64,000 bases of DNA from Candidatus Woesearchaeota archaeon (lineage in GTDB: Archaea > Nanobdellota > Nanobdellia > SCGC-AAA011-G17 > JACPNG01): NCBI GenBank assembly GCA_016203135.1, contig JACQNI010000078.1, positions 1,157 through 65,156 of the forward strand. Direction: 5' to 3'. This document shows, piece by piece, positions 4,012-56,438 of this stretch (the stretch's first letter is position 1; the number at the start of each line of letters is the position of its first letter). The notes below the pieces were generated by a model that saw only the letters and a list, made by a program, of their open reading frames with translations, was not told where the DNA came from and ran no database searches. A program made the translations under genes and the position numbers.

Positions 4012-5289
4012 TTGAATAAAAAAACCGTAGAAGGGTTGCAACCCACAATTAACATTGGTCTCGTTGGACATTAAATAATTAAGGTTATTTAAACCAAAGA
4101 CGTAGACAATGGTAAGACCACCCTGCTTCAAAGAATTAGTGGAATATGGACAGACACCCATTCTGAGGAAATAAAACGAGGAATAACAATAAGATTAGGA
4201 TATGCAAACACAGCCTTCTATAAATGCAGCAAGTGCAAAGATCTAGATATATATAAAACCAAAGACATATGTGATATTCATAAGACAAAATGTGAAGTCA
4301 TAAAAAAAGTTAGTTTTGTTGATGCCCCTGGACATGAAACATTGATGGCAACTATGCTTTCTGGTGCAGCAATAATGGATGCAGCATTGCTGCTTATAGC
4401 TGCAAATGAGCCATGTCCACAACCACAAACAAAAGAGCATCTTATGGCCCTAGAAATTATCGGAATAAAAGATATTATCATAGTTCAAAACAAAATAGAT
4501 CTAGTTTCAGAAGAACAGGCTAAGGAAAACTATAACCAAATTAAGAATTTTGTAAAGGGAACAATAGCAGAGCAAGCACCAATAATACCAATATCAGCCC
4601 AGCATAATACAAACATAGATTATTTAATAAAAACAATAGTTGAAAATTTCAAGATTCCAAAAAGAGATCCAAAAAAACCACCAATAATGTTGATAGCAAG
4701 AAGCTTTGACATTAACAAGCCAGGAACAGAAATCAAAGACTTGGTGGGAGGAGCTTTAGGAGGATCTTTAAAGCAGGGGATTCTTAAGCAGGGCGATGAA
4801 ATAGAAATAGTTCCTGGTTTAAGGAAAGAAAAAGACAACAAAATAATATATCAGTCAATAAAAACAGAGATAGTAAGGATAATGACAGGAAAAGAAGAGA
4901 TTGACCAAGCATCTCCAGGGGGATCCATTGGCATTTCTACCAAACTTGATCCAAGCATTGTAAAAGCAGATTCATTGATAGGCAATATAATAGGCCATCC
5001 AGGAAAACTGCCAAAAGTCTGGGATTCTTTTAAGTTAAAGCAGCATCTTCTTGAAAAAGTAGTCGGCCTAAAAGACGAACTAGCTGTTGAACCCATAAAA
5101 AAAGGGGAAACTTTGATGTTGAACGTAAATTCAGCAACAACAGTAGCAACAGTAACAGATCTTAGTAAAGATAAGATAAATCTAAAATTAAAGCTTCCTG
5201 TTGCTGCTGATTTAACAGATAGAATAACTATTTCTAGATTAATTGGATCAAGATTTAGATTGATTGGCTGGGGCCAGATTGAGAATTAA
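4012..5289 (+). CDS. eif2g: translation initiation factor aIF2 gamma subunit, reading frame interrupted by a 30-nt in-frame insert carrying two TAA stops
   Basis: Upstream frame translates to ...VEGLQPTINIGLVGH, then insert TAAATAATTAAGGTTATTTAAACCAAAGAC. Frame then resumes as VDNGKTTLLQRISGIWTDTHSEEIKRGITIRLGYA..CSKC..CDIHKTKC..VSFVDAPGHE and continues into the 315-aa ORF 4342..5289. Collinear with archaeal aIF2-gamma, including the zinc ribbon. Probable TTG start at 4012; 3997 or 4036 are alternatives. No in-frame ATG upstream. Confidence 0.85.
4072..4101 (+). other. 30-nt in-frame intervening sequence inside the aIF2-gamma P-loop (GHVD^NGKT); perfect 8-bp hairpin 4071-4078/4085-4092, two TAA codons
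   Basis: Removing exactly 30 nt (three equivalent placements, 4070-4099 to 4072-4101) restores a canonical G1 motif GHVDNGKT. Stem TTAAATAA / TTATTTAA with loop TTAAGG. Confidence 0.6.
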
Positions 5290-5950
5290 TATCTTTCCTA
5301 ACTCTAAACCTAATATATCTTTCTATACTTGGAAAATCAGTTCCGTTGGATAAAACTTCCTCTTCATAATTTACAATTAAATTTTTTTTGCCCCTAGCTA
5401 AATTGGCTCTTAGAGTATTAGGATTCATTTTCCTAGATCTAGAAATCTCTGCTATACTTAAGTTATTTATGATTCTGTCTATCAATATAGGTCTATAATT
5501 TCTATGTACCCTATTTAAAGAACGATTCAACAATTTAGAATATTCATCAATTCTTATTTTATCTCCAGGGATAGCCCTAGTATCACGAAGATATAAACTA
5601 TCCTTACCTAAGTCATCTAAATTTAATTCTTGATTTATTTTTCTTTCTCTTCTCATAAGTTGATATGCTTCATTTCTAGCTATTCTATAAACCCAATTTA
5701 TAAATTTACTTTCATCCTTTAAATCAGAAATTTTTTGATATGCTAAAATAAAAGTTTTTTGTGTTAAGTCTTCTGCATGATCTCTTGGATTATTAAGACG
5801 AAATTTAAAAAGTAAAGTTTGAAGATATCCAAATACTTGTGGTGAATATTCTTTATATAATGATGAAAAGGCAGCTTGATCCCCTTGCTTTGCTTTAATC
5901 ACTATTTCTTCTAAATCACTTTGTGCTTCCATTTTTAACAGTCCTTGCAA
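5255..5950 (-). CDS. ECF-type sigma-70 family protein (bacterial-type sigma factor homolog); likely start at Met7 (5932)
   Basis: Region 2 DLTQKTFILAYQKISDLKDESKFINWVYRIARNEAYQLMRRERK matches the ECF pattern DLxQETF...F.(N/T)WLYRIARN...RR.R. Region 4 LSIAEISRSRKMNPNTLRANLARGKKNL matches the HTH of ECF sigma. Directly downstream of gyrA, same strand. Confidence 0.7.
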   Translation of the reverse strand: MQGLLKMEAQSDLEEIVIKAKQGDQAAFSSLYKEYSPQVFGYLQTLLFKFRLNNPRDHAEDLTQKTFILAYQKISDLKDESKFINWVYRIARNEAYQLMRRERKINQELNLDDLGKDSLYLRDTRAIPGDKIRIDEYSKLLNRSLNRVHRNYRPILIDRIINNLSIAEISRSRKMNPNTLRANLARGKKNLIVNYEEEVLSNGTDFPSIERYIRFRVRKDINSQSGPSQSI

Positions 5951-8326
5951 CAGTAGTTACTTTATCCCCTTCCCTTAATTTCATTAAAGTAACACCTTGT
6001 GTGTTTCTTCCAATAGATGAAACATTTATCATAGGCATTCTTATAACTATTCCACTCTTGCTTATTATCATAACTTCATCATCATCTCTAACGGTTTTTA
6101 TTCCAACGACTTTTCCATTTCTTTCATTGATCTTAATATTTATTACTCCGCTTCCCCCCCTTCTGATCAATCTATAATCATCCATATCAGTTCTCTTGCC
6201 AAACCCATTTTCAGTAACGGTCAATAATGTTGCATTTTTCAAAGCTACTTCTAATCCAACAACTTCATCATCTCCCCTCAACTTTATTCCCCTGACTCCA
6301 GTAGCATTTCTTCCCATTTGTCTTACATCGTTTTCATTGAACTTTACAGCCTGGCCGTTTTTGCTTGCCAAGATAAATTCCAGATTTCCAGGAGTTAATC
6401 TAACACTAACAAGTTCATCATTATCCCTTATGTTTATAGCCCTAATTCCACCATGCCTTGGTCTTGAATATTCCTCAAGGGATGTTTTCTTTAACAATCC
6501 TTTTTTAGTTACAAATATCAAATAATGTTGATTGTTAAAATTAGCTAATGGCAATATTGCATTTAACTTTTCATCCTTTTCCAGATTTATAAGATTAACA
6601 ATCGCTTTTCCCTTTGCTATTCTGCTTCCAGGCGGTATCTGATATGCCTTTAGCCAGTGAACTTTTCCTTTGTTTGTAAAAAATAATAAAGTGCTATGAT
6701 TATTTGTGATAAACATATGTTCAATTAAATCATCATCTGAAACATTGACTCCTTTTACCCCAATTCCCCCCCTAGCCTGGCTTCTGTATAATGCTAAGGA
6801 AGTCTGTTTTATATATCCAGAATAAGTTGCAGTGATAACAACATCTTCCTTTTGTATTAAATCCTCTACAAGAATCTCTTCTTCTATATCCAATATTTCT
6901 GTTCTTCTATCGTCTCCAAATTTGTTTTTTATTTCTAAAAGTTCTTTCTTTATAATATCAAATATCTTTTCTTGGGAATTTAATATGCTTTGAAGTTCTT
7001 TTATCAAGCTTTGAAGTTCTTTTATTTCATTTTTTATTTTATCCTGCTCTAAAGAAGTTAATCTCTGTAGTCTCATTTCAAGGATTGAGTTGCTTTGTAT
7101 TTCAGTTAAGTTATATTTTTCAATCAATCCTTTTCTTGCTATTGCAACATCTTTGCTGTTTTTAATTAACTTTACTACATCATCAATATTGTTTAATGCT
7201 ATTGCCAGCCCTTCAAGAACATGAAGCCTATTTTTTGCTTTTTCAAGATCAAACTTTGTCCTTCTTGTTATAACTATTACTCTATGATCAATAAAACTCT
7301 GCATTGCCTGCTTTAGATTAAAAATAATTGGCTGGTTTTTATCCAAGGCAATTAACATGGCCCCAAAAGTAACTTCCATTTGGGTATTTTTATAAAGCTG
7401 ATTTAAAATTACCTCTGCATTATACCCTTTTTTAATTTCAATCATAATTCCCATTCCCTTGCTATCACTCTCATCCCTTATGTCAGAAATTCCTTCTACG
7501 CTTTTTTCTCTTACTAAAGTTGCAATATTTTCAATCAAAGAATTCTTATTTACTTGATAAGGGATTTCAGTTATGATTATTTTGTTTTCTTCTATTTTAG
7601 TTTTGGCTCTTAATTTAATATGCCCCCTTCCGTTTTTATACATGTTTAGGATTCCATTTCTTCCAACAATCATTCCAGCGGTAGGAAAATCCGGTCCCTT
7701 GACAAACTGCATTAACTGATTAATGTCTGCCTCTTTATTATCAATCAAATGAATAATTCCATCAATGACTTCCCTTAAATTATGCGGTGGAAAATTAGTT
7801 GCCATTCCGACAGCTATTCCAGAACTTCCATTGACTAATAAATTTGGAATCTTAGAAGGAAAAACAACTGGTTCCTTATTTGTTCCGTCAAAATTAGGAA
7901 TAAAATCTACTGTATCTTTTTCTATATCTTGAAGTAATTCTTCTCCAAACTTGCTTAATCTTGACTCTGTATATCTTTGGGCCGCAGCAGAAAATCCTTC
8001 TATTGATCCAAAATTACCATGACCGTCTATTAATGTATATCTTAAAGAAAATGGCTGAACCATCCTGACTAATGCATCATAAACAGCCATGTCTCCATGA
8101 GGATGTCTTTTTGCAATAACATTTCCAACAGCAGCTGCACTTTTTCTAAATTGCTTGTCGCTAGTCATGCCTTCTTCATACATTGTATATAAAATTCTTC
8201 TATGAACTGGTTTTAAACCATCATTTATGTCCGGTAAGGCTCTTGAAACTATTACAGACATTGCATAATCCATATATGCTTCCTTCATCTCCTCTTCAAT
8301 CAGTTTTTGTTGTATTTCTTCTGCCA

Positions 8327-8327
<1 letters not shown>
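5916..8327 (-). CDS. gyrA: DNA gyrase subunit A
   Basis: N-terminal domain with active-site Tyr in AAQRYTESRL. C-terminal beta-pinwheel with GyrA box QARGGIGVKG. 803 aa. Confidence 0.95.
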
Positions 8328-10880
<2,553 letters not shown>

Positions 10881-11282
10881 CTAGCTACCTTGTTTAAATT
10901 AACCCCTTGGTTTTTACAATAAATAAATTAAAATTAGCTTTAATTTCAAAAGCTAACAATCTTTTAATTTCAGCTTTTAAAAATCTTTCTCTGTCTAAAA
11001 GTGCATTTTATTGCATCTACAAGACCTATAGACCTATGTTTTCATTGAATATTGAAAAATATATGCAAAAATTATGAAAATAAAGTAAAAAATGAAAAGG
11101 TTTATAAAGTGAAATTTGAAAATGAAAAAATTGCAAAAACAAGCACCATAAGACCTAGTTTAATGAGATTTTGATAGGCAAAATATGGTTTGGCAACAAA
11201 ATTCTAAACCTTCTTAAAATAATTAATTTAAATCACTTAAGAATGGCATCTTTTATAAATACTTTTTATTTTATTTTTAATT

Positions 11283-12563
11283 ATGAAAGGCCATAAACTC
11301 AAGAAAAGACCCAAGAAAGAAACAATTCAAATTATGAAAAGGCTATTAAAAAAAGGAATCAAATCTTCAGAAGCAATATCAAAAAAACTTGGAACAATAA
11401 ATCCAATAACTACTTACCAATATGCTTCATCAGCCAATATAAAAATAAATATGCCCAAAGATTATTGGATATATAACAAAGCAGCTATGAAGAAATATAG
11501 CGTTAAAAAAGCTAAAGAATTATCTAAATTAGTTGATGAGATTTTAAATGATGGAAGTGTAACTTCTTTAGAAGATCTTTGTATTAGACTAGAAACAACA
11601 CCAAGGACACTTTTTCGTTTTGGTTTACATAAACATAAATTAATAAGTAATTTAACCCCTTATAAAACCAATCCAAATATTGATAATTTAGCTGATTTAG
11701 GTTTTTCTCAAACAAAAATTGCAATAAAAAATAATTGCACTATAGAAAATGTAAGACAGCACCTTTTAGCAACTTTGCAATATAAAACATGGGAGAAAAA
11801 AAGGCAAGAAGTAAAAGATAAAGAAAAGTTATTATTATATCAAGAAAAGGCATTGCTAAAAACAGAGAGATTAGAAAAAAACCAAGCAATAAAAAATTTG
11901 CTTTTGGTTTTAAAATATAGATTATTAAAATTAGGGGAAGAGAAAGGATTTGCCTATGAAAAAGCAGCAGAATATATTTATAAAACACCTACAAATCAAA
12001 ATAGTAATTCTTTCAATTCTTTGGTAGCTGCGTTTAAAAGATATGAAAAAGCTAAAAAATCAGGTAAAAAAATAGGATTAGAGAAAATTGTATATGGTTT
12101 AAATATTAGTTTTACCCAAATGGGAAACATTTTAAATAAACTAAACCTAGAACCAATTTATGGAAAAAAACATAGACATACAACCCCAAAAGGAAAAAAG
12201 GCAGCTATCCAAAGAAGTTTTCTTCTTAATTGGTACTATTCAGATATTGGTTACTTCCTTGATTTACCAGATTATATAGTACAACATAATTTGATTGGAA
12301 CTAAACAAAAACGTAATAGGCCTATTAAAAAAGGAAGAAGACTTTTAACTAAAAGGCTAGAAAGCGAGATATATGAAGCAAAAGATCTAACAAAATTAAA
12401 GAATAAAGAGATAATTTTGGCATTGGACATAAACAAAGCGCTTTTCGATTATGTAATTGAATATAGAAATAAAATCGAACCAGAAATAATAAAAGGACTA
12501 AAAATTATTTATGGAAACCCAAACATAGAAAATTCTTATAGGGATTTATCAAAACTACAATAA
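11283..12563 (+). CDS. lysine-rich hypothetical protein (426 aa)
   Basis: Long ORF with basic N-terminus. No recognisable catalytic motif. Preceded by an AT-rich intergenic region with repeated AATGAAAA motifs. Confidence 0.4.
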   Translation: MKGHKLKKRPKKETIQIMKRLLKKGIKSSEAISKKLGTINPITTYQYASSANIKINMPKDYWIYNKAAMKKYSVKKAKELSKLVDEILNDGSVTSLEDLCIRLETTPRTLFRFGLHKHKLISNLTPYKTNPNIDNLADLGFSQTKIAIKNNCTIENVRQHLLATLQYKTWEKKRQEVKDKEKLLLYQEKALLKTERLEKNQAIKNLLLVLKYRLLKLGEEKGFAYEKAAEYIYKTPTNQNSNSFNSLVAAFKRYEKAKKSGKKIGLEKIVYGLNISFTQMGNILNKLNLEPIYGKKHRHTTPKGKKAAIQRSFLLNWYYSDIGYFLDLPDYIVQHNLIGTKQKRNRPIKKGRRLLTKRLESEIYEAKDLTKLKNKEIILALDINKALFDYVIEYRNKIEPEIIKGLKIIYGNPNIENSYRDLSKLQ

Positions 12564-19704: not shown

Positions 19705-19817
19705 TGCTCCGGCCGAGATTCGAACTCGGGTCTCCGCCTTTCTTTGTTTTTGATTAAACCTTTCTAAAAAGTTTACTCGAAAGGGCAGAATCCTTGGCCG
19801 GACTAGACTACCGGAGC
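19705..19817 (-). tRNA. tRNA-Glu (anticodon UUC) with 38-nt intron at the canonical 37/38 position
   Basis: Sense sequence GCTCCGG..TAGTCCGGCCAAGGAT.CTGCC-CTTTCG-[38 nt]-A-GGCGG-AGAC-CCGAG-TTCGAAT-CTCGG-CCGGAGC-A. 7-bp acceptor, T-loop TTCGAAT, anticodon stem CUGCC/GGCGG. No encoded CCA. Confidence 0.75.
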
Positions 19818-24045: not shown

Positions 24046-24894
24046 TTAAAGGGATTGTCGGCTAGCTTGGTTTAGGCTTCGAGGTTTGGGACCTTGCGAC
24101 CCAGGTTCAAATCCTGGCAGTCCCATTATCTTCAATAGACCCTCTTCCTTTCTTTTATTGCTAAAACCAATATTCTTATAGTATATTTCCAAATATTTTC
24201 TTGGAATTCTAAGCAGATACAGGTCTTTTCGATTATCTCTTTTTCTTACTGTTATTCTAGGAACAATCTTCAAAATTAAAAGTATCTTTCTAAGGTCTTC
24301 TATTAGCTCCTTGGAAACAACCCCACAAGAGATATTTATGTTTTCAACAAACCCATCTGTATCCATTAAACCTCTAGCAAAACCAAATAAGAATGATTTA
24401 TTATGAGATTCTATCTCTTTGGCAAGACGTATTGAGTATACTTTTCTGTTTTCCCAATGCAAATAATCTTTAATAAAATTTGATAGATTTATTGAACTTA
24501 TTCTTATTTCAAATGAACTAGGATTTCCTTTATAATTTTTAACATACACTTTTGGATTGAGCCCCATTTTCTTGAAAAGAGAAACTAAATAATTCTTATA
24601 TTCTTTATCATCTTTATAAGAAAGGAAATACCTTGTATAGTATTTACTACTCCTACCATTCTTATCATGGTAATATGAACCATCCCCCGCAAACGAACCT
24701 ATAATTTCCCCTTTTATGAAGTCTGGAAATAGTAGATTAATTTGTTTTACTCTTTTTACTTTTTTATTTACATTTAGATTATACTGGATAGTACTAAGAG
24801 TAATATTTGTTTTCTTTTGTATCTTTCTTAAACTTAATCCATTTTTAGAAAGATTTTTTATTAATCTTATCTGAATTTTTGATAATCTCTTCAT
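24046..24894 (-). CDS. LAGLIDADG homing endonuclease (double-motif, with N-terminal HTH)
   Basis: Motifs IIGSFAGDGSYY and FLFGFARGLMDTDGFV. N-terminal HTH LSLRKIQKKTNITLSTIQ. Last 27 codons are antisense to tRNA-Pro. Confidence 0.8.
   Translation of the reverse strand: MKRLSKIQIRLIKNLSKNGLSLRKIQKKTNITLSTIQYNLNVNKKVKRVKQINLLFPDFIKGEIIGSFAGDGSYYHDKNGRSSKYYTRYFLSYKDDKEYKNYLVSLFKKMGLNPKVYVKNYKGNPSSFEIRISSINLSNFIKDYLHWENRKVYSIRLAKEIESHNKSFLFGFARGLMDTDGFVENINISCGVVSKELIEDLRKILLILKIVPRITVRKRDNRKDLYLLRIPRKYLEIYYKNIGFSNKRKEEGLLKIMGLPGFEPGSQGPKPRSLNQASRQSL
24051..24125 (+). tRNA. tRNA-Pro (anticodon UGG)
   Basis: GGGATTG acceptor pairs with CAGTCCC. Anticodon arm CGAGG-TTTGGGA-CCTTG. T-arm CCAGG-TTCAAAT-CCTGG. 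Discriminator A. 75 nt, no intron. Confidence 0.75.
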
Positions 24895-33747: not shown

Positions 33748-35730
33748 TCAAATGCCTTCTATTAACATCTTCTGAGCTTTTTGTATTATCCCTTGTAAAT
33801 TCTTTTCTAACTCTGCCTTGTTTTTATAACCATATTTAATTTTCATCTCCTCTGGAGATAAACTTTCTTTTCCTTCTAAACCATAGTTATCCACGAGTAA
33901 ATTATATTCTGGTTTTGTAAGGTTTTCTTTAAGTCTACTTGATACATATTCAATTAGGTCTCTTTCTATAAGTCTTTCATCGAATCTATCATAGGATGCT
34001 ATAGTGTCTTCTAATAAGGTCTTGTTTCCATCTTTATAAGTATGAACTACTTTCTGTAAAGAAACAAGATTTACGTCTTTATAATGTTGGGATATTTCAT
34101 ATTGCATACATCTATAACAGTAAGCACCAAAATCATCTAAATCAAACCCTGGATTTGTAAAATGCTTAATTGCGCCAAACAAACCAATCCTTGCAAAAGA
34201 GTTCTTGTCTTCAATAGGAGCATCTCTATAATGATTAAAAGTAAGATTTTTTATCTTACTTTCATAATGTTTCAATAAAGTTTCTATTGCTTTCTGATTA
34301 TTTCTTTTAGCTGCAAGCAGAACATGTCTAAAATCTTCATTTCCAGAGATTCCCTGTACAAATGCTCTTTCAACTAAAGATTCATCAATTTCTTCTTTTT
34401 GAAAATCTCTGTTTGCTTTAGCAATTCTTAACGTAATTGGTTTTACAAAAGTAGCTTTTGGATCTATTTCTATGTCATATTCATTTCTAAGAAGGTTTCT
34501 AATAAATAAATCATATTTCATATCCTCCAATCTTTCTCTTAAATGAGTTATGTCTCCTTCAGGAATCAGCCATATTTTTTTATCGACATCAAATCCAAAT
34601 TCTTTAATTAATCCCACGCTTTCTTCCAATTTTTTTAAACTATGTCTATTGAGATCGCTCCATAATTTTTTTGAAACATTATCTTCAGTAATTCCATTAT
34701 TAACTAACAATTCAATTTTTCCATTTCTTCTAACTTCCCATGTTGGAGGGACATTAGGTTGCTCTTTTCTCTCTGTTTTAAAATGTTCATGTACATATTC
34801 TCTAAACTTTGGTACTCCACCATAATGCTTCCATAAGTATAAATTGAGGCTTTCTTTACTAGAACTCTTAAGTTGATCTTTAGTTGGAACTACAAAATAT
34901 CTTTCTTTTCCTCCTTTATCAACAAATTTATAACCAAACCCTTGTAAATGTTCTTTTGTATAATATTTTTCACTTACTTCTGCACATATTTCTATTATAG
35001 CCTCTAAAATATTTTCTTTGCTAGCACCAGAATTGACTCCTAGTTTATGGTAAGGGGAACTGTCATTCACTCTTTTACTTGCTTCTGCAGCTCTCTTTAT
35101 AGTTGATGGACTTTCTAATAATATCCAAGGTCTGTCTGCTGGATGCAACCCGACTTCACGTATGAATCCTAACCTGCTTTCAAGAGTTTTTATTGAAGGT
35201 TTCTTATATTTTTTAAAATGATCTTCAGTTATTTTTCCAACCCCTGGTTTTATTCCATGTGCAAGTAGAAAATTTTCTCTATCCTCTTCATTATCTCTTT
35301 CGACATTATAAAAAGGGTTTGTTCTTCCTGTTTTGTCTGTTTTTGGTAGAATTAGGGATACTAATATTTTATTTCCATGAAATTCTTTAATAGCATTAGC
35401 TAAATCTGTGTAATTTTGAGATACCAGAAAATCTATAGAGAAAGATTTTCCACTTAATTCACCTTTATATGTGTTGTATATCCTAAGTAATTCATGTCTA
35501 GTTCTTTCATAATCTTCATATTGGTTCTCCTGAGAAGGTTGTTCTTGAGTTTGTAAAACCTCTTCAAAAGGGAATTCTGGTTTTTCAGTAGTGCTATAGG
35601 CTAAACCTTCTTTAATTTGCCTAGCTTTTTTAATAGATCTCTCTAGTTCTAGTTCTTGTTTCCCAGGAAATCTCTTCCTTCCAACCCTTCTACTATTGAG
35701 CCTTCTCCTTCTTTTCTTGGTTATTCCCAT
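33748..35730 (-). CDS. large (660 aa) protein with C-terminal sigma-70-family-like region (regions 1.2/2 and 4) and Arg-rich N-terminus
   Basis: AFVQGISGNEDFRHVLLAAKRNNQKAIETLLKHY resembles region 1.2-2.1 (A..GD..A...L...N.RLV..iAk.Y). IEDKNSFARIGLFGAIKHFTNPGFDLDDFGAYCYRCMQYEI resembles region 2.2-2.4 (DLIQEGNIGLMKAVEKFD...F.TYA..WIRQAI). LTKPEYNLLVDNYGLEGKESLSPEEMKIKYG..AELEKNLQGIIQKAQKML resembles the region 4 HTH. The roughly 430-aa N-terminal part is unassigned. Confidence 0.5.
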   Translation of the reverse strand: MGITKKRRRRLNSRRVGRKRFPGKQELELERSIKKARQIKEGLAYSTTEKPEFPFEEVLQTQEQPSQENQYEDYERTRHELLRIYNTYKGELSGKSFSIDFLVSQNYTDLANAIKEFHGNKILVSLILPKTDKTGRTNPFYNVERDNEEDRENFLLAHGIKPGVGKITEDHFKKYKKPSIKTLESRLGFIREVGLHPADRPWILLESPSTIKRAAEASKRVNDSSPYHKLGVNSGASKENILEAIIEICAEVSEKYYTKEHLQGFGYKFVDKGGKERYFVVPTKDQLKSSSKESLNLYLWKHYGGVPKFREYVHEHFKTERKEQPNVPPTWEVRRNGKIELLVNNGITEDNVSKKLWSDLNRHSLKKLEESVGLIKEFGFDVDKKIWLIPEGDITHLRERLEDMKYDLFIRNLLRNEYDIEIDPKATFVKPITLRIAKANRDFQKEEIDESLVERAFVQGISGNEDFRHVLLAAKRNNQKAIETLLKHYESKIKNLTFNHYRDAPIEDKNSFARIGLFGAIKHFTNPGFDLDDFGAYCYRCMQYEISQHYKDVNLVSLQKVVHTYKDGNKTLLEDTIASYDRFDERLIERDLIEYVSSRLKENLTKPEYNLLVDNYGLEGKESLSPEEMKIKYGYKNKAELEKNLQGIIQKAQKMLIEGI

Positions 35731-36157: not shown

Positions 36158-37198
36158 TTAAGATAATGTGGTTGTTTTAATGTAGTCTATTAGTTTTTTC
36201 CCTCTATTATATAATTCAGTATAAGTAATAATTTCTACATTGCTCAGATGGCTTGAGAAGATTCTTCTGTCTTGAATTTTATCTGTTTTTTGTTTACCTA
36301 TAACAATAAGAGATTTTGGTTTAAAGATATTTTTAATATTTTTAGTATCACATATGTGTAGATAAGTAAAAACTTGACCGATTGCTTCTGAAAACTTTTG
36401 ATTTGGTTTGCTTCTTTTTTCAGTTCTTCGGTCAAATAGATTCTCATTTGGGCCTTTTAACTCTACTAAATCATAAAAGTTATCATATCTTTGTAACATT
36501 ATATCAAATTGATAATCTTTTTTGCCAGGTGGGAACCAAACTTTATGCTCAATTCCAATATATTCTAAACCAAAAATCCAAAAGATATCTTTATTAGCAA
36601 TAAAATAATTGTGAACATCGGTCTCTGTTGATTTAGAACTATCGATAAGAGTCTTGAATTTTTTAAGCTTATTCTCGTAGTCTTTGACATTAGACTTCAT
36701 TATGTTAAATCGTCTTTTGAAAATATTTAACTGGACAATATTTGATGATTCTAGGTCTTTAATTTTTTTGAATTTTGCATTGAGCTCACTAATCTCATCT
36801 TTTTTCCTTAAAAAGTTTTTATATTTTTCTTTTGGAAGAACAACAAAATTTGGGTTGCTAAGCCCATCTCCAATAATTGCGTTTACTATTTCAGAAGTGA
36901 GGGACCATTCTTCCATTGATCTTATATTGTAACTTCTAAAAATTCTCCAGTATTTAATTTTCTTATTTTTCTTATCATTAATTGCTCTCCATTTTGTTAC
37001 TCTAATAACTCTTTTATCTGTCAATTTGCCAGAAGTTCTATCTCTTTCGTAGCATTCATCTACACTATAAAGCCAGACACTATTACTTGATAAAAGAACT
37101 GGATATCTGTTAATTAATTCATAGAACTCACTTTCAATAAATGTCCTCTCATTGCAAGTTAAAATTTTATCCATAACATTCTGGATGGGGTGTAGCAT
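36158..37198 (-). CDS. Shedu-like (DUF4263) PD-(D/E)xK nuclease, candidate defence gene
   Basis: C-terminal YQFDIMLQRYDNFYDLVELKGPNENLF...KFSEAIGQVFTYLH...PKSLIVIGK matches the DUF4263 pattern (D..D..ELK / ..A.sQ...Y / iIVIGr). Variable N-terminal domain. Confidence 0.5.
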   Translation of the reverse strand: MLHPIQNVMDKILTCNERTFIESEFYELINRYPVLLSSNSVWLYSVDECYERDRTSGKLTDKRVIRVTKWRAINDKKNKKIKYWRIFRSYNIRSMEEWSLTSEIVNAIIGDGLSNPNFVVLPKEKYKNFLRKKDEISELNAKFKKIKDLESSNIVQLNIFKRRFNIMKSNVKDYENKLKKFKTLIDSSKSTETDVHNYFIANKDIFWIFGLEYIGIEHKVWFPPGKKDYQFDIMLQRYDNFYDLVELKGPNENLFDRRTEKRSKPNQKFSEAIGQVFTYLHICDTKNIKNIFKPKSLIVIGKQKTDKIQDRRIFSSHLSNVEIITYTELYNRGKKLIDYIKTTTLS

Positions 37199-38198: not shown

Positions 38199-41100
38199 TT
38201 ATTCTTTTTTTTTAAATAATCTTTTAATTCTAAACCTTAATTTTCTTACTATTCTTGTGCGAGTTAAAAATGTTAGTGTCAAAATTAACACAACCCAAGA
38301 GATTATAGTAGACCATACCCCATTATTTCCAGAAAGAACACCTATTGCAGCCCCAGTTGGAGGTCCTGGATTAGTAAAGAATGCTTTAATTCCATTCCAT
38401 ACTTTAGCAAAGAATCCTTGGGTAGTTTGTTCTTGAGCTTCTAAAACTGGTTCTTCTTTAGGTTCTTCTTGTAATGTTTCAGGAACCGCTTCTTGTGGTT
38501 CTTCTCCATCAGGTATAGGAAAATCAAATGTTGGAGTTGGTTGAGGTGTAGGCGTTACACTTCTAGAGCTACTACTTCCCCCACCACCGCCTCCCCCTCC
38601 TCCCCCAGAAGATCCGCCTGGAGATCCAGTATCTACTCCAGTACTACAACTTTGGGATTCTTGGGGTTTATTATTTGTAGTTCCACATAAATTAGAGTCA
38701 GTACAGGTTCTAGTTTGGGTTCCACTAGTACAAGAGCTCCATTCAGAACATGTCCATGACTCATCGCAAGATTCTTGTTCTTTAATTCCTGAATGTTTTA
38801 AACCGCTTATTTTATACGAGTTATTTACAATCTCACAACTGTAAGTAAAGTTTGAACCTGGGCATAAAACTAATAATTCATCTTCTTTAATACAAGAATT
38901 ACTAATCTCTGTTAGATTAGTAATTTCTTGATCTTTAAGGCATAGTTTACTTGTATTTGATATAATGTCTACGTATACCGTCTTATTACTTCCATTCAGA
39001 TCTAAACCACGAATAAGAAGAGAACCAAAACTACTGTTATTTTCTTGTTTTTTAATAGTTAAATTCTTTATGTTGATTGTAATATTTGGTAATTCTATTC
39101 TTGTTTTATTATTTTCTTTTAAAATTAATTTATCCTTTATTTTTCCTAGATTTATATTATCTAAATTATTTTTAATTTCAGTTATATTTCCAATAAAGCC
39201 ATCATTATCAAAATCACAGGAATAAGTGTTGTTTTGAGGTCTACCTAATAAATCTGAATTCAAACCAGTCTTATTATAACAAGAATTATTGTCAATGAAA
39301 TAATTTTTAAATATTTCATCTTTTTGACATGGTGTAAATGATTCTATCCATTTTGGAGTGCAAAAATCGCATATTAAAGGTTCAAATTCAGAAAAATTTC
39401 CTAGATATAAGTCAGATTCTAAACCAGTTTTATTATAACAACTAAAGGTATCATTGACTAAATTACATGATTGTGTATCATTTGCTGAACATTTATTATA
39501 CCCCCCACAAGTAAAATTCGGTTTACAAAAATCACATTTCCCAATGATGTTCAATGGTTTGTTTTTATTATCATTACAACTATTAATATCAAAATAATTT
39601 TTAAATTGTTGATCATTAGAACTACATTCTGACCAGGTGTTATTTAAGACCCAATTTGGAGTGCATAAATTAATTTCATAAAGACTAGTTTCTGCGGCTT
39701 TTATTTCTACTTTTCTGTTAGTGTCTTGACCATTTACAAATAACGAATAATTTCCTTCTGGAATAGTTAAGCCATAATCTTCCTTATTATCATCATAATT
39801 AAAGTGATAAAATATTTTTGATGTTGGGTTTTGTGTAAATTGATACTCTATTGAACTATTAACAATTTTGACTTGACCATTAAAGGTTTCATTTACTTTA
39901 ATCAAAGCAGTCCCTTCTCCAAAAGGATTATTCGCATTATTTGAATTAATATATACTTCATCATGGTTAAGATAACTACCAAAATTATTTTGATTAGTCA
40001 TAAATTGGTCTATCAAACCAATCACGTTATCTAAGTTAGTTGTTGTGTTTAGATAATCTTCAATTAGAGGTCTTAGAACTGAAGACCAAGCCTGTCCCGT
40101 ATAATGGTCTAAAATCATATCCCAAAAACCATGTTCCCATAATTCTATTTGTGTATATATTGTTTTGTGATTTCTATTTATAACTATTAATGGAAGATTG
40201 TTATTTATCCTTGATGCACTAGAGACTGAAACTAAATCATCTGAGTCATCAGCTTCAAAAGGTAAACATGGGATATCTTGATTTTTACCAGCAATAATCA
40301 AAGTATCAACATTTGATGTGGTGTTTTTTATATTCAACTTCCAAATAAAATCACTACCTATCGCAAGGTCTGTATATGCTGGCGCATCTTGATTCCAACT
40401 AATAAAAGGTTTTCCAAACAATAACCATCCGCCGACCTCATTTATTACTTGACACGCTAAATTCATGCCTTCATCATATATTATTCTATTTGCTAAATAT
40501 GAACCATAATTCGGTGGGGCAAGCATTAGCAACTTACTCACATCATCATGATAAGATATGTTTTTACCGTTTGGGTCGGTAGCAATTCCTTCGATGTAAG
40601 ACCTTGTTACTAATCCCCCCATACTATGAGATACAATTTTAACTTTTGAAGAAGTGTAAAAAGAATTAACATAAGAAATTCCATCAGACAACAAAGTACC
40701 AGAATAATCTATCTTTTGGTCATTTGGATAATAAAATTTCCAAACATCATAACCTTTTGCGATTAATTTATCTTCAAAGTGTCCATCAAAATATCCACTT
40801 TCTCCATTTAATCCATGAACTAAAATTAATGGTTCATTATTAACATTCAAATTCTTTCTTGGTGCTTCTAAGAATGAAACCTGATAAAAACTAGAACTTA
40901 TGCTTGCAACAGAAAAAGCGTTGGTATTGATAGAATTTGTAGTTTCTAACAATTCATTAAGTTCTTTTTCTTCTTTAAACTTTTCAAATGGTTTTATCTC
41001 TAGTGAAGAGTTTATTTTATAATATTGGTAATTGAAAGATTCTTTTATGAGGTTTGAACTTGGAACTAAATAAAAACTTTCTTCACTACCTCTTTTCCAC

Positions 41101-42482
41101 ATTAGATTGGGAGATTCTCTCTCAATTAAGTGAACATATTCAATAGTGATATTATGTTCTCCTTCTGTTAAATGACTAGGAAAAGAAACAACTTCATCTG
41201 AATAAAGAGAGTCTATAACCATTTCTTCATCTAATATTATCTTATACCCTCCCAAAATTGTAGCGTTAAAGTAATATGAATTTTCATTCCCAATCATCAA
41301 TATACCCTTCCAGGAGTTATACAATATTTCCTCTTCTTTTTCTACGTCTTGTTCTTCAGGGTCTGTGCTACTAGCCGAGAAAGTTTTGGTTAAGTCGTCA
41401 GTTTCTGATTCTGTTAACAATGGTACTATTTTATTTTTAATTAAATTAAGTTGCGAGTTTTGTTCTTCTGTTAAGTGAATTTCTTCATCATCTTTTATAT
41501 TCTCATTTTGAATATTTTCAGAAGATGTTAAATTGTTTATTTCAAAACTATCAGAGGTTTGTTTCCAATAAGGTTTATCTGTATGAATTCTAACTCTTTG
41601 GTCTATATAGTCTAACCCTTTCTTGTATTTATCATTGTCATTTGTGTAACTATTTGTCCAACTAGCAATAGGGTTATTGTTGTTGTCTAATGCAAAAACT
41701 TTAATGTTCCAATCAAATAAAATATTTGAGTTCCATTCTGTTTGCCTATTAAATTCAGGGTTGTATTTGAAATTACCATTAGAGTCAGATTGAACATAAT
41801 CAGCAAAAACTGGATTTGTAATTCTTCCCAATAATGAAGAGTCATCATAAACAACAAAAAATAAACTTATGTTTGAGTAAGGTTGTGAACTGAAAGTATT
41901 TTGTTGATTTGTAACAACATTAAAGACTTGTCCCTTTATTGCATAATTACAAAAGTTTTGATTAACATTCCAGTTTTCATAATCAAAACAACAACCATCC
42001 CCTAAAGAACCTCCTCCGCCCGCAGAAAAAATAGGAATACCTTCACAATATAATTTATTTTGGCATGAGGAATCTAAGTTACAATCACCTTCATTATGTT
42101 CTAAATTACCACTAGCTTTAAAATCCATATTCCAAGAATTTCTTTGTACATTTCCAATCTTTACTTTTGCATAATATTCTGCGTTGTTAAATCCATCTTC
42201 TCCATTAGCACCACCCCATTTTGCGATTATACGGTTATTCTTCACTCCACCAGAAAAATTAGCGATAAAATCATCATCAAGAAAGTCGTCTTCCCATATC
42301 TCAATTATAACAGAAGTTCCGTCAGAATAACCAGAAGTCTTAGCTAAAACATATCTTTCTTCAAAAGATTTTGTTAAATATTTATCCCAATCAACGCTGT
42401 CAATAGTAGCCGCATTAACAAAACTACTAAGTGAAATTAATAGGATAAAAGTAATCAAGTAACTTTTATAAACCATACCCAA
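38199..42482 (-). CDS. giant secreted / surface-anchored protein (1427 aa) with alpha/beta-hydrolase (lipase-like) domain, Cys-rich modules, poly-Gly/Ser linker and C-terminal TM anchor
   Basis: Signal peptide. LILVHGLNGESGYF and VSHSMGGLVTRSY (lipase GxSxG with upstream HG). GSSGGGGGGGGGGSSSSRSVTPTPQPTP linker. C-terminal hydrophobic helix followed by a KR-rich tail. Confidence 0.7.
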   Translation of the reverse strand: MGMVYKSYLITFILLISLSSFVNAATIDSVDWDKYLTKSFEERYVLAKTSGYSDGTSVIIEIWEDDFLDDDFIANFSGGVKNNRIIAKWGGANGEDGFNNAEYYAKVKIGNVQRNSWNMDFKASGNLEHNEGDCNLDSSCQNKLYCEGIPIFSAGGGGSLGDGCCFDYENWNVNQNFCNYAIKGQVFNVVTNQQNTFSSQPYSNISLFFVVYDDSSLLGRITNPVFADYVQSDSNGNFKYNPEFNRQTEWNSNILFDWNIKVFALDNNNNPIASWTNSYTNDNDKYKKGLDYIDQRVRIHTDKPYWKQTSDSFEINNLTSSENIQNENIKDDEEIHLTEEQNSQLNLIKNKIVPLLTESETDDLTKTFSASSTDPEEQDVEKEEEILYNSWKGILMIGNENSYYFNATILGGYKIILDEEMVIDSLYSDEVVSFPSHLTEGEHNITIEYVHLIERESPNLMWKRGSEESFYLVPSSNLIKESFNYQYYKINSSLEIKPFEKFKEEKELNELLETTNSINTNAFSVASISSSFYQVSFLEAPRKNLNVNNEPLILVHGLNGESGYFDGHFEDKLIAKGYDVWKFYYPNDQKIDYSGTLLSDGISYVNSFYTSSKVKIVSHSMGGLVTRSYIEGIATDPNGKNISYHDDVSKLLMLAPPNYGSYLANRIIYDEGMNLACQVINEVGGWLLFGKPFISWNQDAPAYTDLAIGSDFIWKLNIKNTTSNVDTLIIAGKNQDIPCLPFEADDSDDLVSVSSASRINNNLPLIVINRNHKTIYTQIELWEHGFWDMILDHYTGQAWSSVLRPLIEDYLNTTTNLDNVIGLIDQFMTNQNNFGSYLNHDEVYINSNNANNPFGEGTALIKVNETFNGQVKIVNSSIEYQFTQNPTSKIFYHFNYDDNKEDYGLTIPEGNYSLFVNGQDTNRKVEIKAAETSLYEINLCTPNWVLNNTWSECSSNDQQFKNYFDINSCNDNKNKPLNIIGKCDFCKPNFTCGGYNKCSANDTQSCNLVNDTFSCYNKTGLESDLYLGNFSEFEPLICDFCTPKWIESFTPCQKDEIFKNYFIDNNSCYNKTGLNSDLLGRPQNNTYSCDFDNDGFIGNITEIKNNLDNINLGKIKDKLILKENNKTRIELPNITINIKNLTIKKQENNSSFGSLLIRGLDLNGSNKTVYVDIISNTSKLCLKDQEITNLTEISNSCIKEDELLVLCPGSNFTYSCEIVNNSYKISGLKHSGIKEQESCDESWTCSEWSSCTSGTQTRTCTDSNLCGTTNNKPQESQSCSTGVDTGSPGGSSGGGGGGGGGGSSSSRSVTPTPQPTPTFDFPIPDGEEPQEAVPETLQEEPKEEPVLEAQEQTTQGFFAKVWNGIKAFFTNPGPPTGAAIGVLSGNNGVWSTIISWVVLILTLTFLTRTRIVRKLRFRIKRLFKKKE

Positions 42483-46444: not shown

Positions 46445-47293
46445 ATGATGAAAGAATCTATTAAAATAAAAAGAGATAGAAAATTAAATAGGTTTGTTAT
46501 AAAATCCCTAATTAAAAGACCTTTGTCAGCTGATCAGATTCTTGATAAAATTAAACTATCTAAAAAGTTTAAAATTAACACCCTACCTGGATTAGAAAAA
46601 TATCATTTAGCATATCTAGAAAAGAAAAATGTTATACTTAGATTAGATAGAAAAGCTAAAAATTTTATAAATAATTTATCTGTTGAAGACTTTATGGAAA
46701 AAACTTGGTTTAGGTGGGAGAGAAGTATTAAGAAAAATAAATGGGGAAGTAAAAGTAATAATCCTTATCATTCATATTATTTTGCTACTCCTATAACAGC
46801 TAAATGGACAAATATTTTTAATAAAATTATTAGAGAGAGAATTTTAGTTAAACTCAGCGAATTTATTACTGATAGGGATGAGATTGAGTTATGTTTGAAT
46901 GAAATTATTAATACTATGAAAAAAATTGAAACCCTTTCTAGGAAAAAAATAAAAATTTATAAAAGATTACAACAAGAAACCGATGATTTTTTAGGAGTCA
47001 AGGGAATTAATTATTTAGAAAGCAAAATTAAAAAAATCAAAAAATTTCAAAAAAAAGACGGTATGTTTTTACCTTTTGGATTTGCTGATTATATATTATC
47101 TGATTTTGATAGTTTTATGAGACCTATGGATGATATTAAATTTGTTCTCTTTAGCAGACTACTTAATAAATTAGGTACCCTTCACTATTTATTAAATCAA
47201 AGAATTAAAATAATAAGTATTTTAGATTATGAATTTAAAAAAGAAAATTTTGTTGAACCCAATGAATATCTTAAGAATTTAACTTCTTCTTAA
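46445..47293 (+). CDS. hypothetical protein (282 aa)
   Basis: ORF only. Confidence 0.35.
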   Translation: MMKESIKIKRDRKLNRFVIKSLIKRPLSADQILDKIKLSKKFKINTLPGLEKYHLAYLEKKNVILRLDRKAKNFINNLSVEDFMEKTWFRWERSIKKNKWGSKSNNPYHSYYFATPITAKWTNIFNKIIRERILVKLSEFITDRDEIELCLNEIINTMKKIETLSRKKIKIYKRLQQETDDFLGVKGINYLESKIKKIKKFQKKDGMFLPFGFADYILSDFDSFMRPMDDIKFVLFSRLLNKLGTLHYLLNQRIKIISILDYEFKKENFVEPNEYLKNLTSS

Positions 47294-48488
47294 TCAATTC
47301 TAAAATTTCTGGATCTTTAACAAGTTTATCCATAATTTCATCTGCCTGTTGTCTTTCAAAATCTTCCTTTAATATATTATCAGCTTCTTCTTTATCCAAT
47401 ACTAAACCACATAGTTTACAAAATTTATTACTATTTTCATTATTAGTCTTACATCTGATGCAATTTTGTGGTTTTAAAATAATCTTTGTTTTTTTATTCT
47501 CAACTTCCATTCCATTAATTTTTAAAATAGCTTGATCTGTATCTCTGCCAGACATATGGATATAAATACCAGCCATCCTAGAGCCTTGAGTCCAACCAAG
47601 ATATTGTTTCATTACAGCTTCTCCAACACTGTTTGAAGCCATCCAAGTTGCTCTTGAATGCCTTAATAAATGAGGATAGACTCTTTTCTTAATTCCTGCT
47701 TTTTGAGCTGCTCTTTTAAGAATGTGATTGATTTGAGCATAACATAATAATTCTCCACCATTGAAATTATACCATAAGAAAGCCTCTGGATTATCATTGT
47801 CTGGATGTTGGTTTATCCATTCTTGTAGATAAGGAGTACTACTTATAATGAGAATTTTTCTTGAACCAGTTTTTCCATGAATATTTATCCTTGCCCCATA
47901 TTCTTCAAAGGATATATGTTTAATCTTCATTGTGCCTATTTCTGAACATCTAGCTCCAGATTCAGCTAGAACAGATAATAGGGTTTTATCTCTAAGACAA
48001 TCAGCTGATCTAACTATTTTTTCTATTTCTTCCTCAGTCAAAAGCTCTTCTGGCAGTTTTTTATGATTATCTTTTAAGCCAATCTTAATCCATTTGACTT
48101 CTGCGGGTAATTCATCTGAATCTTCTAAGCCCCTTACAATCTTATATAGCCTCTTTACCATAACTTTAAATGTAGTTTTGCTTTGTTCTGTCATCGCTGT
48201 TTGATTTAGACTAGCCATTACTCTTACTATATCTTCTTTTGTAGCATCTTTTATATGCTTTCCTAACATATTAACGAACTTCATAGCGTAGAATACATAG
48301 GAATCTATCTTGCCATAACTAATTCCTCTACATAGGCAATAATCTTTAAATTTATGTATCCATTCTTTATCTTCATCAGAAATATCAGATTCCTTTAATC
48401 TTTCTAATATCCTATCAAATCTCCTTTTGTAATTATGTAAATCCATTTTTACCTTAAATAAGTCGTGATTTTCTAGATAATAAACCAC
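47271..48488 (-). CDS. int: tyrosine recombinase / integrase (XerC/D-like) with C-terminal zinc ribbon
   Basis: Catalytic-region motifs HLLRHSRATW and GIYIHM. N-terminal SAM-like domain. C-terminal CIRCKT...CKLCG. 30 nt from tRNA-Ser. Confidence 0.85.
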   Translation of the reverse strand: MVYYLENHDLFKVKMDLHNYKRRFDRILERLKESDISDEDKEWIHKFKDYCLCRGISYGKIDSYVFYAMKFVNMLGKHIKDATKEDIVRVMASLNQTAMTEQSKTTFKVMVKRLYKIVRGLEDSDELPAEVKWIKIGLKDNHKKLPEELLTEEEIEKIVRSADCLRDKTLLSVLAESGARCSEIGTMKIKHISFEEYGARINIHGKTGSRKILIISSTPYLQEWINQHPDNDNPEAFLWYNFNGGELLCYAQINHILKRAAQKAGIKKRVYPHLLRHSRATWMASNSVGEAVMKQYLGWTQGSRMAGIYIHMSGRDTDQAILKINGMEVENKKTKIILKPQNCIRCKTNNENSNKFCKLCGLVLDKEEADNILKEDFERQQADEIMDKLVKDPEILELIKKKLNS

Positions 48489-48518: not shown

Positions 48519-48614
48519 CGCCGAGGCAGGGATTTGAACCCTGATATCCTTGCGGAAACCGGTTTTCGAGATTCGCCTTTTATCCAGCGCACTACCGGAT
48601 TATGCGACCTCGGC
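48519..48614 (-). tRNA. tRNA-Ser (probable anticodon CGA), long variable arm, 12-nt intron at non-canonical position 30/31
   Basis: Sense sequence GCCGAGG-TC-GCAT..GTGC-G-CTGG[ATAAAAGGCGAA]T-CTCGAAA-ACCGG-TTTCCGCAAGGATAT-CAGGG-TTCAAAT-CCCTG-CCTCGGC-G. Collinear with the intron-less tRNA-Ser(GCU) at 51888..51971 apart from the 12-nt insert. Confidence 0.65.
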
Positions 48615-55820: not shown

Positions 55821-56438
55821 ATGGAATTAAACAAAGACTTTGCAGAATTAATTGGAATTTTACTCGGAGATGGTTCTATAAATATATACCCTTCAAATAA
55901 ATATTCTACATATTATCGTGTTAAGGTTAGTTTTAATTCTAATGAAGAGGCTTATGTTGGTTATGTTAGTGATCTTATGTTCAAAACATTAAATGAAAAA
56001 CCAAAAAGATATGATAGAAAAAACGAAGATACTTCTGAATTATTAATCTTTAAAAAAAGTGTAGCAAATAAACTCTTATCTATTGGTTTAAAGAAATCTC
56101 CAAAATGGAATAGAGCAGTAATCCCAGAAAAATTTATGAAAAAAAGATTAGGCAAATATGTTTTGAGGGGTTATTTTGATACTGATGGTAGTGTGGTTTT
56201 GGCAAATAATAATGGAACTTTATATCCTCGCTTAGAAATGAAAATATGTCCTTCTCCAATGCAATCTCAGATATTAAAATTATTAAATGAATACAATTTA
56301 AACTATAATTATTATAATATTGGTAAAGGTAAAATTCGTATTCAGATGAATGGGAAAAAAGCATTAAAAATATGGACTTCAAAAATAGGTTTCAGTAATT
56401 CAAAGCATATTGAAAAGGCTTCTTATTTTCTGAATTAA
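55821..56438 (+). CDS. LAGLIDADG homing endonuclease (double-motif)
   Basis: LIGILLGDGSI and LRGYFDTDGSV motifs. 205 aa. 72 nt downstream of the initiator tRNA. Confidence 0.8.
   Translation: MELNKDFAELIGILLGDGSINIYPSNKYSTYYRVKVSFNSNEEAYVGYVSDLMFKTLNEKPKRYDRKNEDTSELLIFKKSVANKLLSIGLKKSPKWNRAVIPEKFMKKRLGKYVLRGYFDTDGSVVLANNNGTLYPRLEMKICPSPMQSQILKLLNEYNLNYNYYNIGKGKIRIQMNGKKALKIWTSKIGFSNSKHIEKASYFLN

Follow-up and report, generated by a model that had tools for sequence, protein, structure and literature searches.

What might an archaeal cell do with a bacterial sigma factor? Archaea initiate transcription with TBP, TFB and TFE, and sigma factors are a hallmark of bacteria. The question is raised by a sigma-70 family gene of the extracytoplasmic function (ECF) type that follows the gyrase genes in a 64,000-nucleotide stretch of Candidatus Woesearchaeota archaeon DNA (contig JACQNI010000078.1, positions 1,157 to 65,156; “the window” below means this whole stretch). 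A census of 69 archaeal genomes in MiST2 (2009) counted 0 ECF sigmas (PMC2808908), whereas sigma-70 genes of DPANN archaea, “particularly prevalent in Woesearchaeota”, were described by Castelle et al. 2021 (PMC8204110), who could exclude mis-binning, saw no anti-sigma factors and described the mechanism as unclear. The novelty implied by the original prediction for this locus, which was made from the sequence alone, was therefore forestalled by that 2021 publication. Judged by its sequence, the gene studied here is a highly divergent member of these reported but unexplained DPANN sigma-70 genes, and from sequence and modelled structure we give an even chance to its being a domesticated regulator that selection has retained and that acts in the archaeal cell. 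New here are its position in the gyrase operon, an ortholog that speaks for long retention, a contrast between its sigma2 and sigma4 domains, and the rejection of the readings that it arrived together with gyrase or recently.

The mechanically called open reading frame (ORF) spans 5255..5950 (-) and starts from TTG at 5950 (231 aa). The first in-frame ATG, at 5932, is the likelier start, and the resulting 225-aa product is an exact record in both nr ([quoted passage not shown]) and Logan. The gene and its parts are as follows (HMM, hidden Markov model; pLDDT, predicted local distance difference test):

5255..5932 (-), ECF-type sigma-70 family gene, 225 aa from the ATG at 5932 (Pfam, NCBIfam, SigW match, nr/Logan record)
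5618..5932 (-), sigma2 domain, residues 1-105 (Sigma70_r2; region 2.1-2.4 signature AEDLTQKTFILAY ... KFINWVYRIARNEAY)
5570..5617 (-), short, disordered sigma2-sigma4 linker, residues 106-121 (pLDDT, ECF profile alignment)
5345..5569 (-), sigma4 helix-turn-helix (HTH), residues 122-196, folded, of atypical sequence VHRNYRPILIDRIINNLSIAEISRSRKMNPNTLRANLARGKKNL (pLDDT, HMM scores)
5255..5344 (-), C-terminal tail, residues 197-225 and the stop codon (low pLDDT)

The protein matched the Pfam model Sigma70_r2 (PF04542) with 48.3 bits (E = 8.6e-13; gathering score 24) and passed the NCBIfam model sigma70-ECF (TIGR02937; 59.9 bits vs a cutoff of 42.9) over profile positions 2-161 of 165, and its best PDB match was B. 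subtilis SigW (5wuq; E = 1.9e-13; residues 11-185, sigma4 covered). It carries the conserved motifs DLxQxTF and FxxWxxxIAxN, contains both of the motifs quoted in the original prediction (DLTQKTF and WVYRIARNEAYQLMRRERK) and matches phrog_1740 (“RNA polymerase sigma factor”; E = 2.6e-20). An AlphaFold2 model built on a 53-sequence alignment had a mean pLDDT of 83.8, with sigma2 (1-105) and sigma4 (122-196) above 90, residues 107-121 below 50 and the 29-residue tail low. Foldseek searches of the PDB with this model returned sigma factors only, the top matches being all ECF sigmas (6jbq and 4lup were among the matches), and the sigma2 model fitted region 2 of E. coli sigmaE (4lup) with a TM score of 0.78 and a root-mean-square deviation of 3.0 Å. 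Regions 1.1 and 3 were absent and no further Pfam domain was found in the 225 aa (Pfam scan, model), and inspection of the protein sequence gave no signal peptide or transmembrane segment. By sequence and model, the ORF encodes a genuine two-domain ECF-type sigma-70 homolog and is no chance motif match; the original prediction was right on this point, as it was in calling the gene intact (an uninterrupted ORF of 225 codons). Its region 4 HTH stood in part: the predicted fold, the SigW alignment and the full-length TIGR02937 pass speak for it, yet the Sigma70_r4_2 score (PF08281; 19.8 bits) is below the gathering score of 25.7. No NCBIfam equivalog cutoff was reached (PRK11922, 81.1 vs 204 bits; SigW PRK09641, 79.5 vs 209; RpoE TIGR02939, 53.3 vs 236). 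The tail gave no significant match among 289 collected proteins, and an autoinhibitory role for it, like that of the ECF41/42 extensions, is unsupported.

The evidence that carries our reading comes from a related organism. P0007 (244 aa), one of the top matches, is 30% identical to the window protein and has in common with it a short insertion that follows region 1.2, the HTH variant “EISR” and, weakly, the tail motif NG..(F/L)PS(I/L)E; its contig, L142, was looked up after the shared tail motif had been noticed among the sigma matches. L142 (4.45 kb, GC 0.36) belongs to a separate ENA assembly and to a different organism, and its gene order, gyrA 3′ end → sigma → ← aIF2-gamma ← S6e ← aIF5B, matches that of the window. 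Identities between L142 and the window (tblastn) were:

gyrA, 71%
aIF2-gamma, 77%
S6e, 73%
aIF5B, 70.5%
sigma, 30%

After Kimura correction the sigma proteins are separated by ∼1.6 substitutions per site and their neighbors by 0.28-0.37, a four- to sixfold faster divergence of sigma. Even so, both frames are open (225 and 244 codons) in DNA of roughly 30-36% GC, in which stops make up ∼8% of random codons and an unconstrained frame of 225 codons would stay open with p ∼1e-8 (an estimate from composition). Identical in both orthologs are the ECF signatures of regions 2.1/2.2 (E54, D55, Q58, T60, F61, A64, Y65) and 2.3/2.4 (F77, W80, I84, A85, N87) and the core of the sigma4 HTH (R147, L150, R153, L158, S159, E162, I163, T173, R175, L178, L185). 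The last ∼11 sigma codons are, in both organisms, antisense to the conserved C-terminus of aIF2-gamma (the convergent overlap is 35 nt in the window, 5255-5289, and 39 nt in L142, 1629-1667), and similarity between the orthologs there is therefore no independent sign of function. The simplest reading of these sequences is vertical inheritance from the common ancestor of both organisms followed by rapid divergence. Intact ORFs and invariant signature residues despite 30% identity point to purifying selection on the sigma fold and key surfaces, unlike the state of a decaying pseudogene, and thus to a gene that selection has kept for long while its sequence changed fast. Because the relative keeps sigma at the same spot, the gene is probably in use, and a retained, repurposed factor appears the better reading than a recent acquisition that has not yet decayed, the two possibilities that the original prediction had left side by side.

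The two domains differ in how ordinary they are. Separate HMMs for sigma2 and sigma4 were built from 117 ECFs of a profile search (the named ones bacterial), and the 149 nearest neighbors were scored with them. The window sigma2 fell at the 23rd percentile of these 149 ECFs and that of P0007 at the 22nd, whereas the window sigma4 fell at the 1st percentile (25.7 bits vs a median of 64) and that of P0007 at the 10th. An earlier leave-out HMM comparison was biased by the choice of its test set and is given little weight; the domain-wise comparison is fairer. On these scores this archaeal lineage has an ordinary sigma2 and an unusually diverged sigma4. The two domains have distinct contacts in bacteria: the beta-prime clamp helices and the non-template strand of the melted -10 element for sigma2, the beta-flap tip and the -35 element for sigma4. 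Conservation of this kind suggests a sigma2 partner that persists and a sigma4 partner that has changed.

Homologs are abundant and remote. A phmmer search of 1.84 billion cluster representatives gave 37,203 matches at E ≤ 0.001, of which only the sigma protein itself was under 1e-30, the next best being 33-37% identical; a word-indexed homolog search with the sigma protein returned only itself, and a pattern scan of viral contigs with both orthologs returned no relatives. Among the 20 nearest or most AT-rich matches few were named, and all of these were bacterial (Hydrogenedentota, Paludibaculum, Rhodocyclales). A search with a profile of 22 ECFs gave 5503 matches, the best 120 of which were mostly bacterial ECFs (for example, SigW-like proteins of Clostridia and Bacillota) and included no other archaeal-named protein. 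By sequence, then, sigma belongs to the ECF family broadly, with no identifiable donor lineage and no close family.

The original prediction had proposed a block acquired from bacteria, gyrase and sigma together, and neither the block nor a recent date survives comparison with other genomes. The closest gyrA retrieved was from Woesearchaeota (59% identity), followed by one from a metagenome-assembled genome labelled Methanosarcinales (57%), with bacterial sequences at ≤53%, and published phylogenies place DPANN gyrases inside archaeal clades, gyrase being present in most Woesearchaeota (Villain et al. 2022, PMC9348778). Scans anchored on gyrA covered 80 loci in GTDB genomes and 57 in JGI metagenomes; they rely on exact 8-mer peptides and missed the L142 relative. 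No archaeal locus among these 80 and 57 had a sigma gene near gyrA, five bacterial gyrA loci had unrelated ECFs in their flanks, and archaeal or metagenomic loci with gyrA 47-59% identical to that of the window had no sigma-like ORF within 6-10 kb. At the latter loci gyrB lies elsewhere or is split from gyrA by unrelated small genes. Conservation in related archaea is accordingly divided: L142 keeps sigma at the same site, and the more distant gyrA loci have no sigma nearby. On this sequence evidence sigma did not arrive with gyrase. As to age, the GC content (0.286), third-position GC (GC3, 0.155) and synonymous-codon likelihood of the sigma gene are all host-like, no relative exceeds 37% identity, and the positional ortholog in L142 has only 30%; host-like codons together with the pattern of the positional ortholog rule out, as far as sequence can tell, a fresh import.

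The gene is the last of four in a tightly packed operon, gyrB-HD-gyrA-sigma. The surrounding features are:

5916..8327 (-), gyrA, directly upstream of sigma (Pfam DNA_topoisoIV, 537 bits; DNA_gyraseA_C)
8327..8995 (-), HD-domain phosphohydrolase, YedJ/PRK10119-like (Pfam HD, E = 4e-16; NF007515, 120.9 bits, below cutoff)
8985..10868 (-), gyrB, first of the four operon genes (Pfam DNA_gyraseB, Toprim, HATPase_c)
10869..11282 (no strand), AT-rich intergenic region upstream of gyrB, presumed promoter region of the operon (sequence)
4012..5289 (+), aIF2-gamma, convergent neighbor (Pfam eIF2_C, GTP_EFTU)

The HD gene is wedged between gyrB and gyrA and overlaps both at stop/start codons, and the sigma start overlaps the gyrA stop by 17 nt (ATG start) or 35 nt (TTG start). 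The shared orientation and the distance of 0-35 nt given in the original prediction are thus confirmed, sigma lying on the same strand and abutting or overlapping gyrA. At other archaeal loci (L071, L089) different small genes, or none, stand between gyrB and gyrA; with spacer genes that differ from one archaeal locus to another, the gyrase operon of these genomes is a site of variable insertion. The region 10869-11282 (414 nt) separates gyrB from a divergent 426-aa ORF without a Pfam match and contains weak, two-copy, imperfect direct repeats (for example, 11010-11030 and 11130-11150, 120 nt apart, 71% identical). GC is uniform across the window at about 30%, and archaeal markers were identified in it by Pfam (aIF5B, S6e, aIF2-gamma and Rpo7 [RpoE′]), with a Spt4-like zinc ribbon and S24e- and S27ae-like small ORFs identified by reading rather than by HMM. 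Four Logan assemblies from different runs contain DNA 100% identical to the window across both sigma junctions; with all four identical, they offered no single-nucleotide polymorphisms for a test of selection.

The partners that a bacterial ECF sigma would be expected to have were searched for nearby. The window contains no second sigma-like ORF, and no anti-sigma gene lies next to sigma, which is flanked by gyrA and aIF2-gamma both in the window and in L142. Pfam scans of about 55 larger window ORFs found no anti-sigma or bacterial RNA polymerase (RNAP) domain, and no bacterial RNAP gene is listed for the 4.7 kb by which contig L001 extends the window. A scan for sigma-70-type promoters over 4800-11400 found 28 sites vs 31.3 expected; sigmaW- and sigmaE-type ECF promoter patterns were not enriched in the window. 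Upstream of gyrB no promoter of either the sigma-70 or the ECF type was evident, although ECF operons typically carry an autoregulatory one (-35 AAC, -10 CGT-like). An ORF with a weak match to Peptidase_M50 (site-2 protease) lies at 59822-60379 (-), and no link between it and the sigma gene was found. Proteases of the M50 class cleave anti-sigma factors in bacterial ECF systems and are common in archaea.

In the account that we favor, a bacterial ECF gene would have entered the ancestor of a narrow Woesearchaeota sublineage and been kept at the site gyrA → sigma → ← aIF2-gamma, its sequence changing about five times as fast as that of its neighbors. It may have become a domesticated transcription-associated factor whose sigma2 still uses the conserved surface of the family and whose diverged sigma4 HTH would supply contacts to duplex DNA. 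The preferred partner would be the archaeal transcription machinery, either the RNAP clamp coiled-coil (the site of TFE-alpha and Spt5) or promoter DNA directly, and, lacking an anti-sigma factor to restrain it, the protein would be active constitutively and in a dose that follows expression of the gyrase operon. A more specific version has sigma2 docking on the clamp coiled-coil of archaeal RNAP and helping to open or select promoters, while sigma4, freed from the beta-flap, drifts or re-specialises; taken in this detail it is unlikely. The coiled-coil is proposed because it is the only homologous docking site in an archaeon; it corresponds structurally to the beta-prime clamp helices of bacteria. 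By analogy with bacterial holoenzyme structures, TFE-alpha may be regarded as a functional analogue of sigma2. The winged helix of TFE-alpha docks on the clamp coiled-coil of archaeal RNAP and contacts the non-template strand (PMC7289017). As an alternative to docking on RNAP, a classical DNA-binding regulator that acts independently of the polymerase, or a DNA binder tied to gyrase and topology, is plausible; a role with a bacterial polymerase, or no role, is less probable.

Several points weigh against retention as a working regulator. The case is built entirely from sequence and predicted structure, and from two orthologs whose 30% identity is too low for a ratio of nonsynonymous to synonymous substitution rates. 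Conservation of sigma2 may in part reflect fold stability rather than a kept partner surface, and a bacterial-type RNAP or an unlinked anti-sigma factor could still lie beyond the surveyed window and contig L001. Promoter patterns were not enriched, which is a weak null result in that the models describe the specificity of other sigmas. Distant gyrA loci have no sigma nearby, though their neighborhoods are unconserved and a sigma gene could be present elsewhere in those genomes.

Of the explanations that compete with a domesticated regulator, an assembly or binning artefact, in which a bacterial fragment was joined to archaeal sequence, can draw on the bacterial affinity of the protein family and on nothing more. 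On a single contig the sigma ORF overlaps gyrA at one end and aIF2-gamma at the other, the region is uniform in GC and codon usage, four assemblies have identical junctions and a second organism has the same gene order. These last two observations exclude mis-binning or chimerism for practical purposes, in agreement with the original prediction, which had argued from the archaeal neighbors; the chance of an artefact is negligible, and this reading is effectively refuted. That the gene is instead a neutral passenger, a horizontally acquired bacterial gene without function in the archaeon that has yet to decay, we consider quite improbable. Its nearest named relatives are bacterial, it has no known archaeal partner, it has diverged very fast (30% identity vs 70-77% for its neighbors) and its sigma4 falls under the Pfam threshold, all of which would suit a passenger. 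Against this, it is intact at the same locus in two lineages whose housekeeping proteins are 70-77% identical, in DNA so AT-rich that stops would pile up fast, with the family-invariant residues kept and with host-like codon usage, and DPANN genomes are small and streamlined.

An ordinary sigma working with a bacterial-type core RNAP, encoded either elsewhere in the genome or in a bacterial partner or host that would receive the protein, would account for the presence of both sigma2 and sigma4, predicted to be folded and with family residues conserved; Woesearchaeota are moreover thought to be symbionts, and horizontal gene transfer has been tied to such partnerships (PMC8204110, PMC9348778). 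This too has a poor chance of being right, given that no bacterial RNAP gene was seen in about 55 larger window ORFs or in the 4.7 kb added by L001, that the DPANN survey describes only an archaeal TBP/TFB/TFE apparatus beside such sigmas (PMC8204110), that the sequence has no signal peptide or transmembrane segment for delivery to a partner, and that sigma4, which would be needed for the beta-flap and the -35 element, is the most degenerate part. A stand-alone factor of DNA topology linked to gyrase would contact no RNAP at all; its sigma2 would act on unwound or single-stranded DNA and its sigma4 on duplex DNA, sensing or modulating supercoiling together with gyrase. Such a role would explain the persistence of the gene in the gyrase operon. 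In both organisms it follows gyrA directly, and its overlap with gyrA in the window suggests translational coupling. Sigma2 domains do bind single-stranded non-template DNA, and stand-alone regulators with a sigma4-like HTH exist in archaea (LuxR, Tfx and HTH_10 types; PMC5413776). Adjacency of the genes is, however, the sole link to gyrase, and operon membership in small DPANN genomes is often not functional. The core-binding signature of regions 2.1/2.2 (D55, Q58 and others) would also be expected to drift in a factor that never meets RNAP, yet it is invariant at 30% identity. A topology factor has an outside chance.

If the domesticated regulator is accepted, at least one DPANN sigma would have been maintained over substantial evolutionary time with its RNAP- or melting-related sigma2 signature intact, and an odd annotation would become a testable question, namely what sigma2 binds in a cell without a bacterial RNAP. 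Should the target prove to be the archaeal polymerase, this would be the first cross-domain reuse of an initiation factor, inside a eukaryote-like apparatus; a DNA-binding regulator and nothing else would make a modest case of domestication after horizontal transfer.

The convergent neighbor, aIF2-gamma, has a feature of its own. Its P-loop codons are split (GH|VDNGKT) by a 30-nt in-frame insert at 4070-4099 that contains two stop codons, so that the raw translation reads ...GLVGH*IIKVI*TKDVDNGKTT..., and the L142 gene has a 30-nt insert at the same place (2819-2848, -) with a different internal sequence. Dropping the 30 nt restores GGA CAC GUA GAC, the GHVD of the invariant GHVDxGKT, in both organisms. 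Exon 1 of both genes is preceded by a GGAGG Shine-Dalgarno sequence, whose distance to the TTG or GTG start is 8 nt in the window and 10 nt in L142. The canonical bulge-helix-bulge (BHB) fold would comprise an outer exon-exon helix, a 3-nt bulge AG|A with the 3′ splice site, a 4-bp central helix UUGG:CCAA and a 3-nt bulge AC|A with the 5′ splice site, and two pairs of the inner hairpin covary between the window and L142. The minimum free energy (MFE) folds of both 50-nt segments are one base-pair register off this helix-bulge-helix-bulge-helix arrangement, with a 3-bp rather than 4-bp central helix beside the 3′ bulge, and the canonical fold costs an extra 0.8 (window) or 3.5 (L142) kcal/mol over the MFE. 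From sequence and modelled folds the insert looks like a candidate mRNA intron of the BHB type. Archaeal protein-coding BHB introns are known essentially only from crenarchaeal cbf5 (PMC2738675), and such introns being rare in archaea, the candidate could matter in its own right.

Two tRNA genes of the window, at 19705-19817 (-; 113 nt) and 48519-48614 (-; 96 nt), were detected by Rfam and not by ARAGORN; they presumably carry introns, which fits an active archaeal splicing endonuclease. Free-standing ORFs resembling LAGLIDADG homing endonucleases lie at 24046-24894 (-) and 55821-56438 (+), the former overlapping tRNA-Pro (24051-24125) on the opposite strand. The segment 33748-48614, in which many ORFs have no Pfam match, could represent an integrated element or a defence island. 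Its tyrosine integrase gene (47271-48488) abuts the tRNA gene at 48519-48614, and it also encodes a nuclease resembling Shedu SduA_C (36158-37198), a protein of 1427 aa that includes a lipase-like domain (38199-42482) and a 660-aa ORF (33748-35730), the last with a weak match to HTH_16, a domain that scores on many ECF sigmas too.

Sigma genes in non-bacterial or mobile genomes have precedents in the nuclear-encoded plastid sigmas and the phage-encoded sigmas (phrog_1740). Both of these still serve a bacterial-type core, either the plastid-encoded polymerase or host RNAP. The window gene lies in a housekeeping locus, not in a mobile element. Archaeal Tfx, HTH_10/Bat and LuxR solos (PMC5413776) combine an HTH of the sigma region 4 type with a host that has no bacterial RNAP, but they have no sigma2, which in the present protein is complete and the best-conserved part. 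In architecture the protein resembles the bacterial ECF (group IV) sigmas (SigW, 5wuq; RpoE/sigmaE, 1or7 and 6jbq), being small (225 aa vs about 180-220 aa typically) and arranged as sigma2-linker-sigma4 without sigma1.1 or sigma3. It differs from them in its archaeal host, with archaeal RNAP and initiation factors, in having no co-transcribed anti-sigma factor (typical, although not universal, among ECFs), in its outlier sigma4, its unique 29-residue C-terminal tail and the lack of an equivalog-level family, and in sitting in a gyrase operon instead of an autoregulated sigma/anti-sigma operon. By description it is most readily likened to the DPANN sigma-70 genes of fam00359 (PMC8204110), with which it shares Woesearchaeota as hosts, archaeal neighbors on its contig and the absence of an anti-sigma factor; what the present locus adds to the short description of that family is its place in the gyrase operon, a positional ortholog only 30% identical and the unequal conservation of sigma2 and sigma4.

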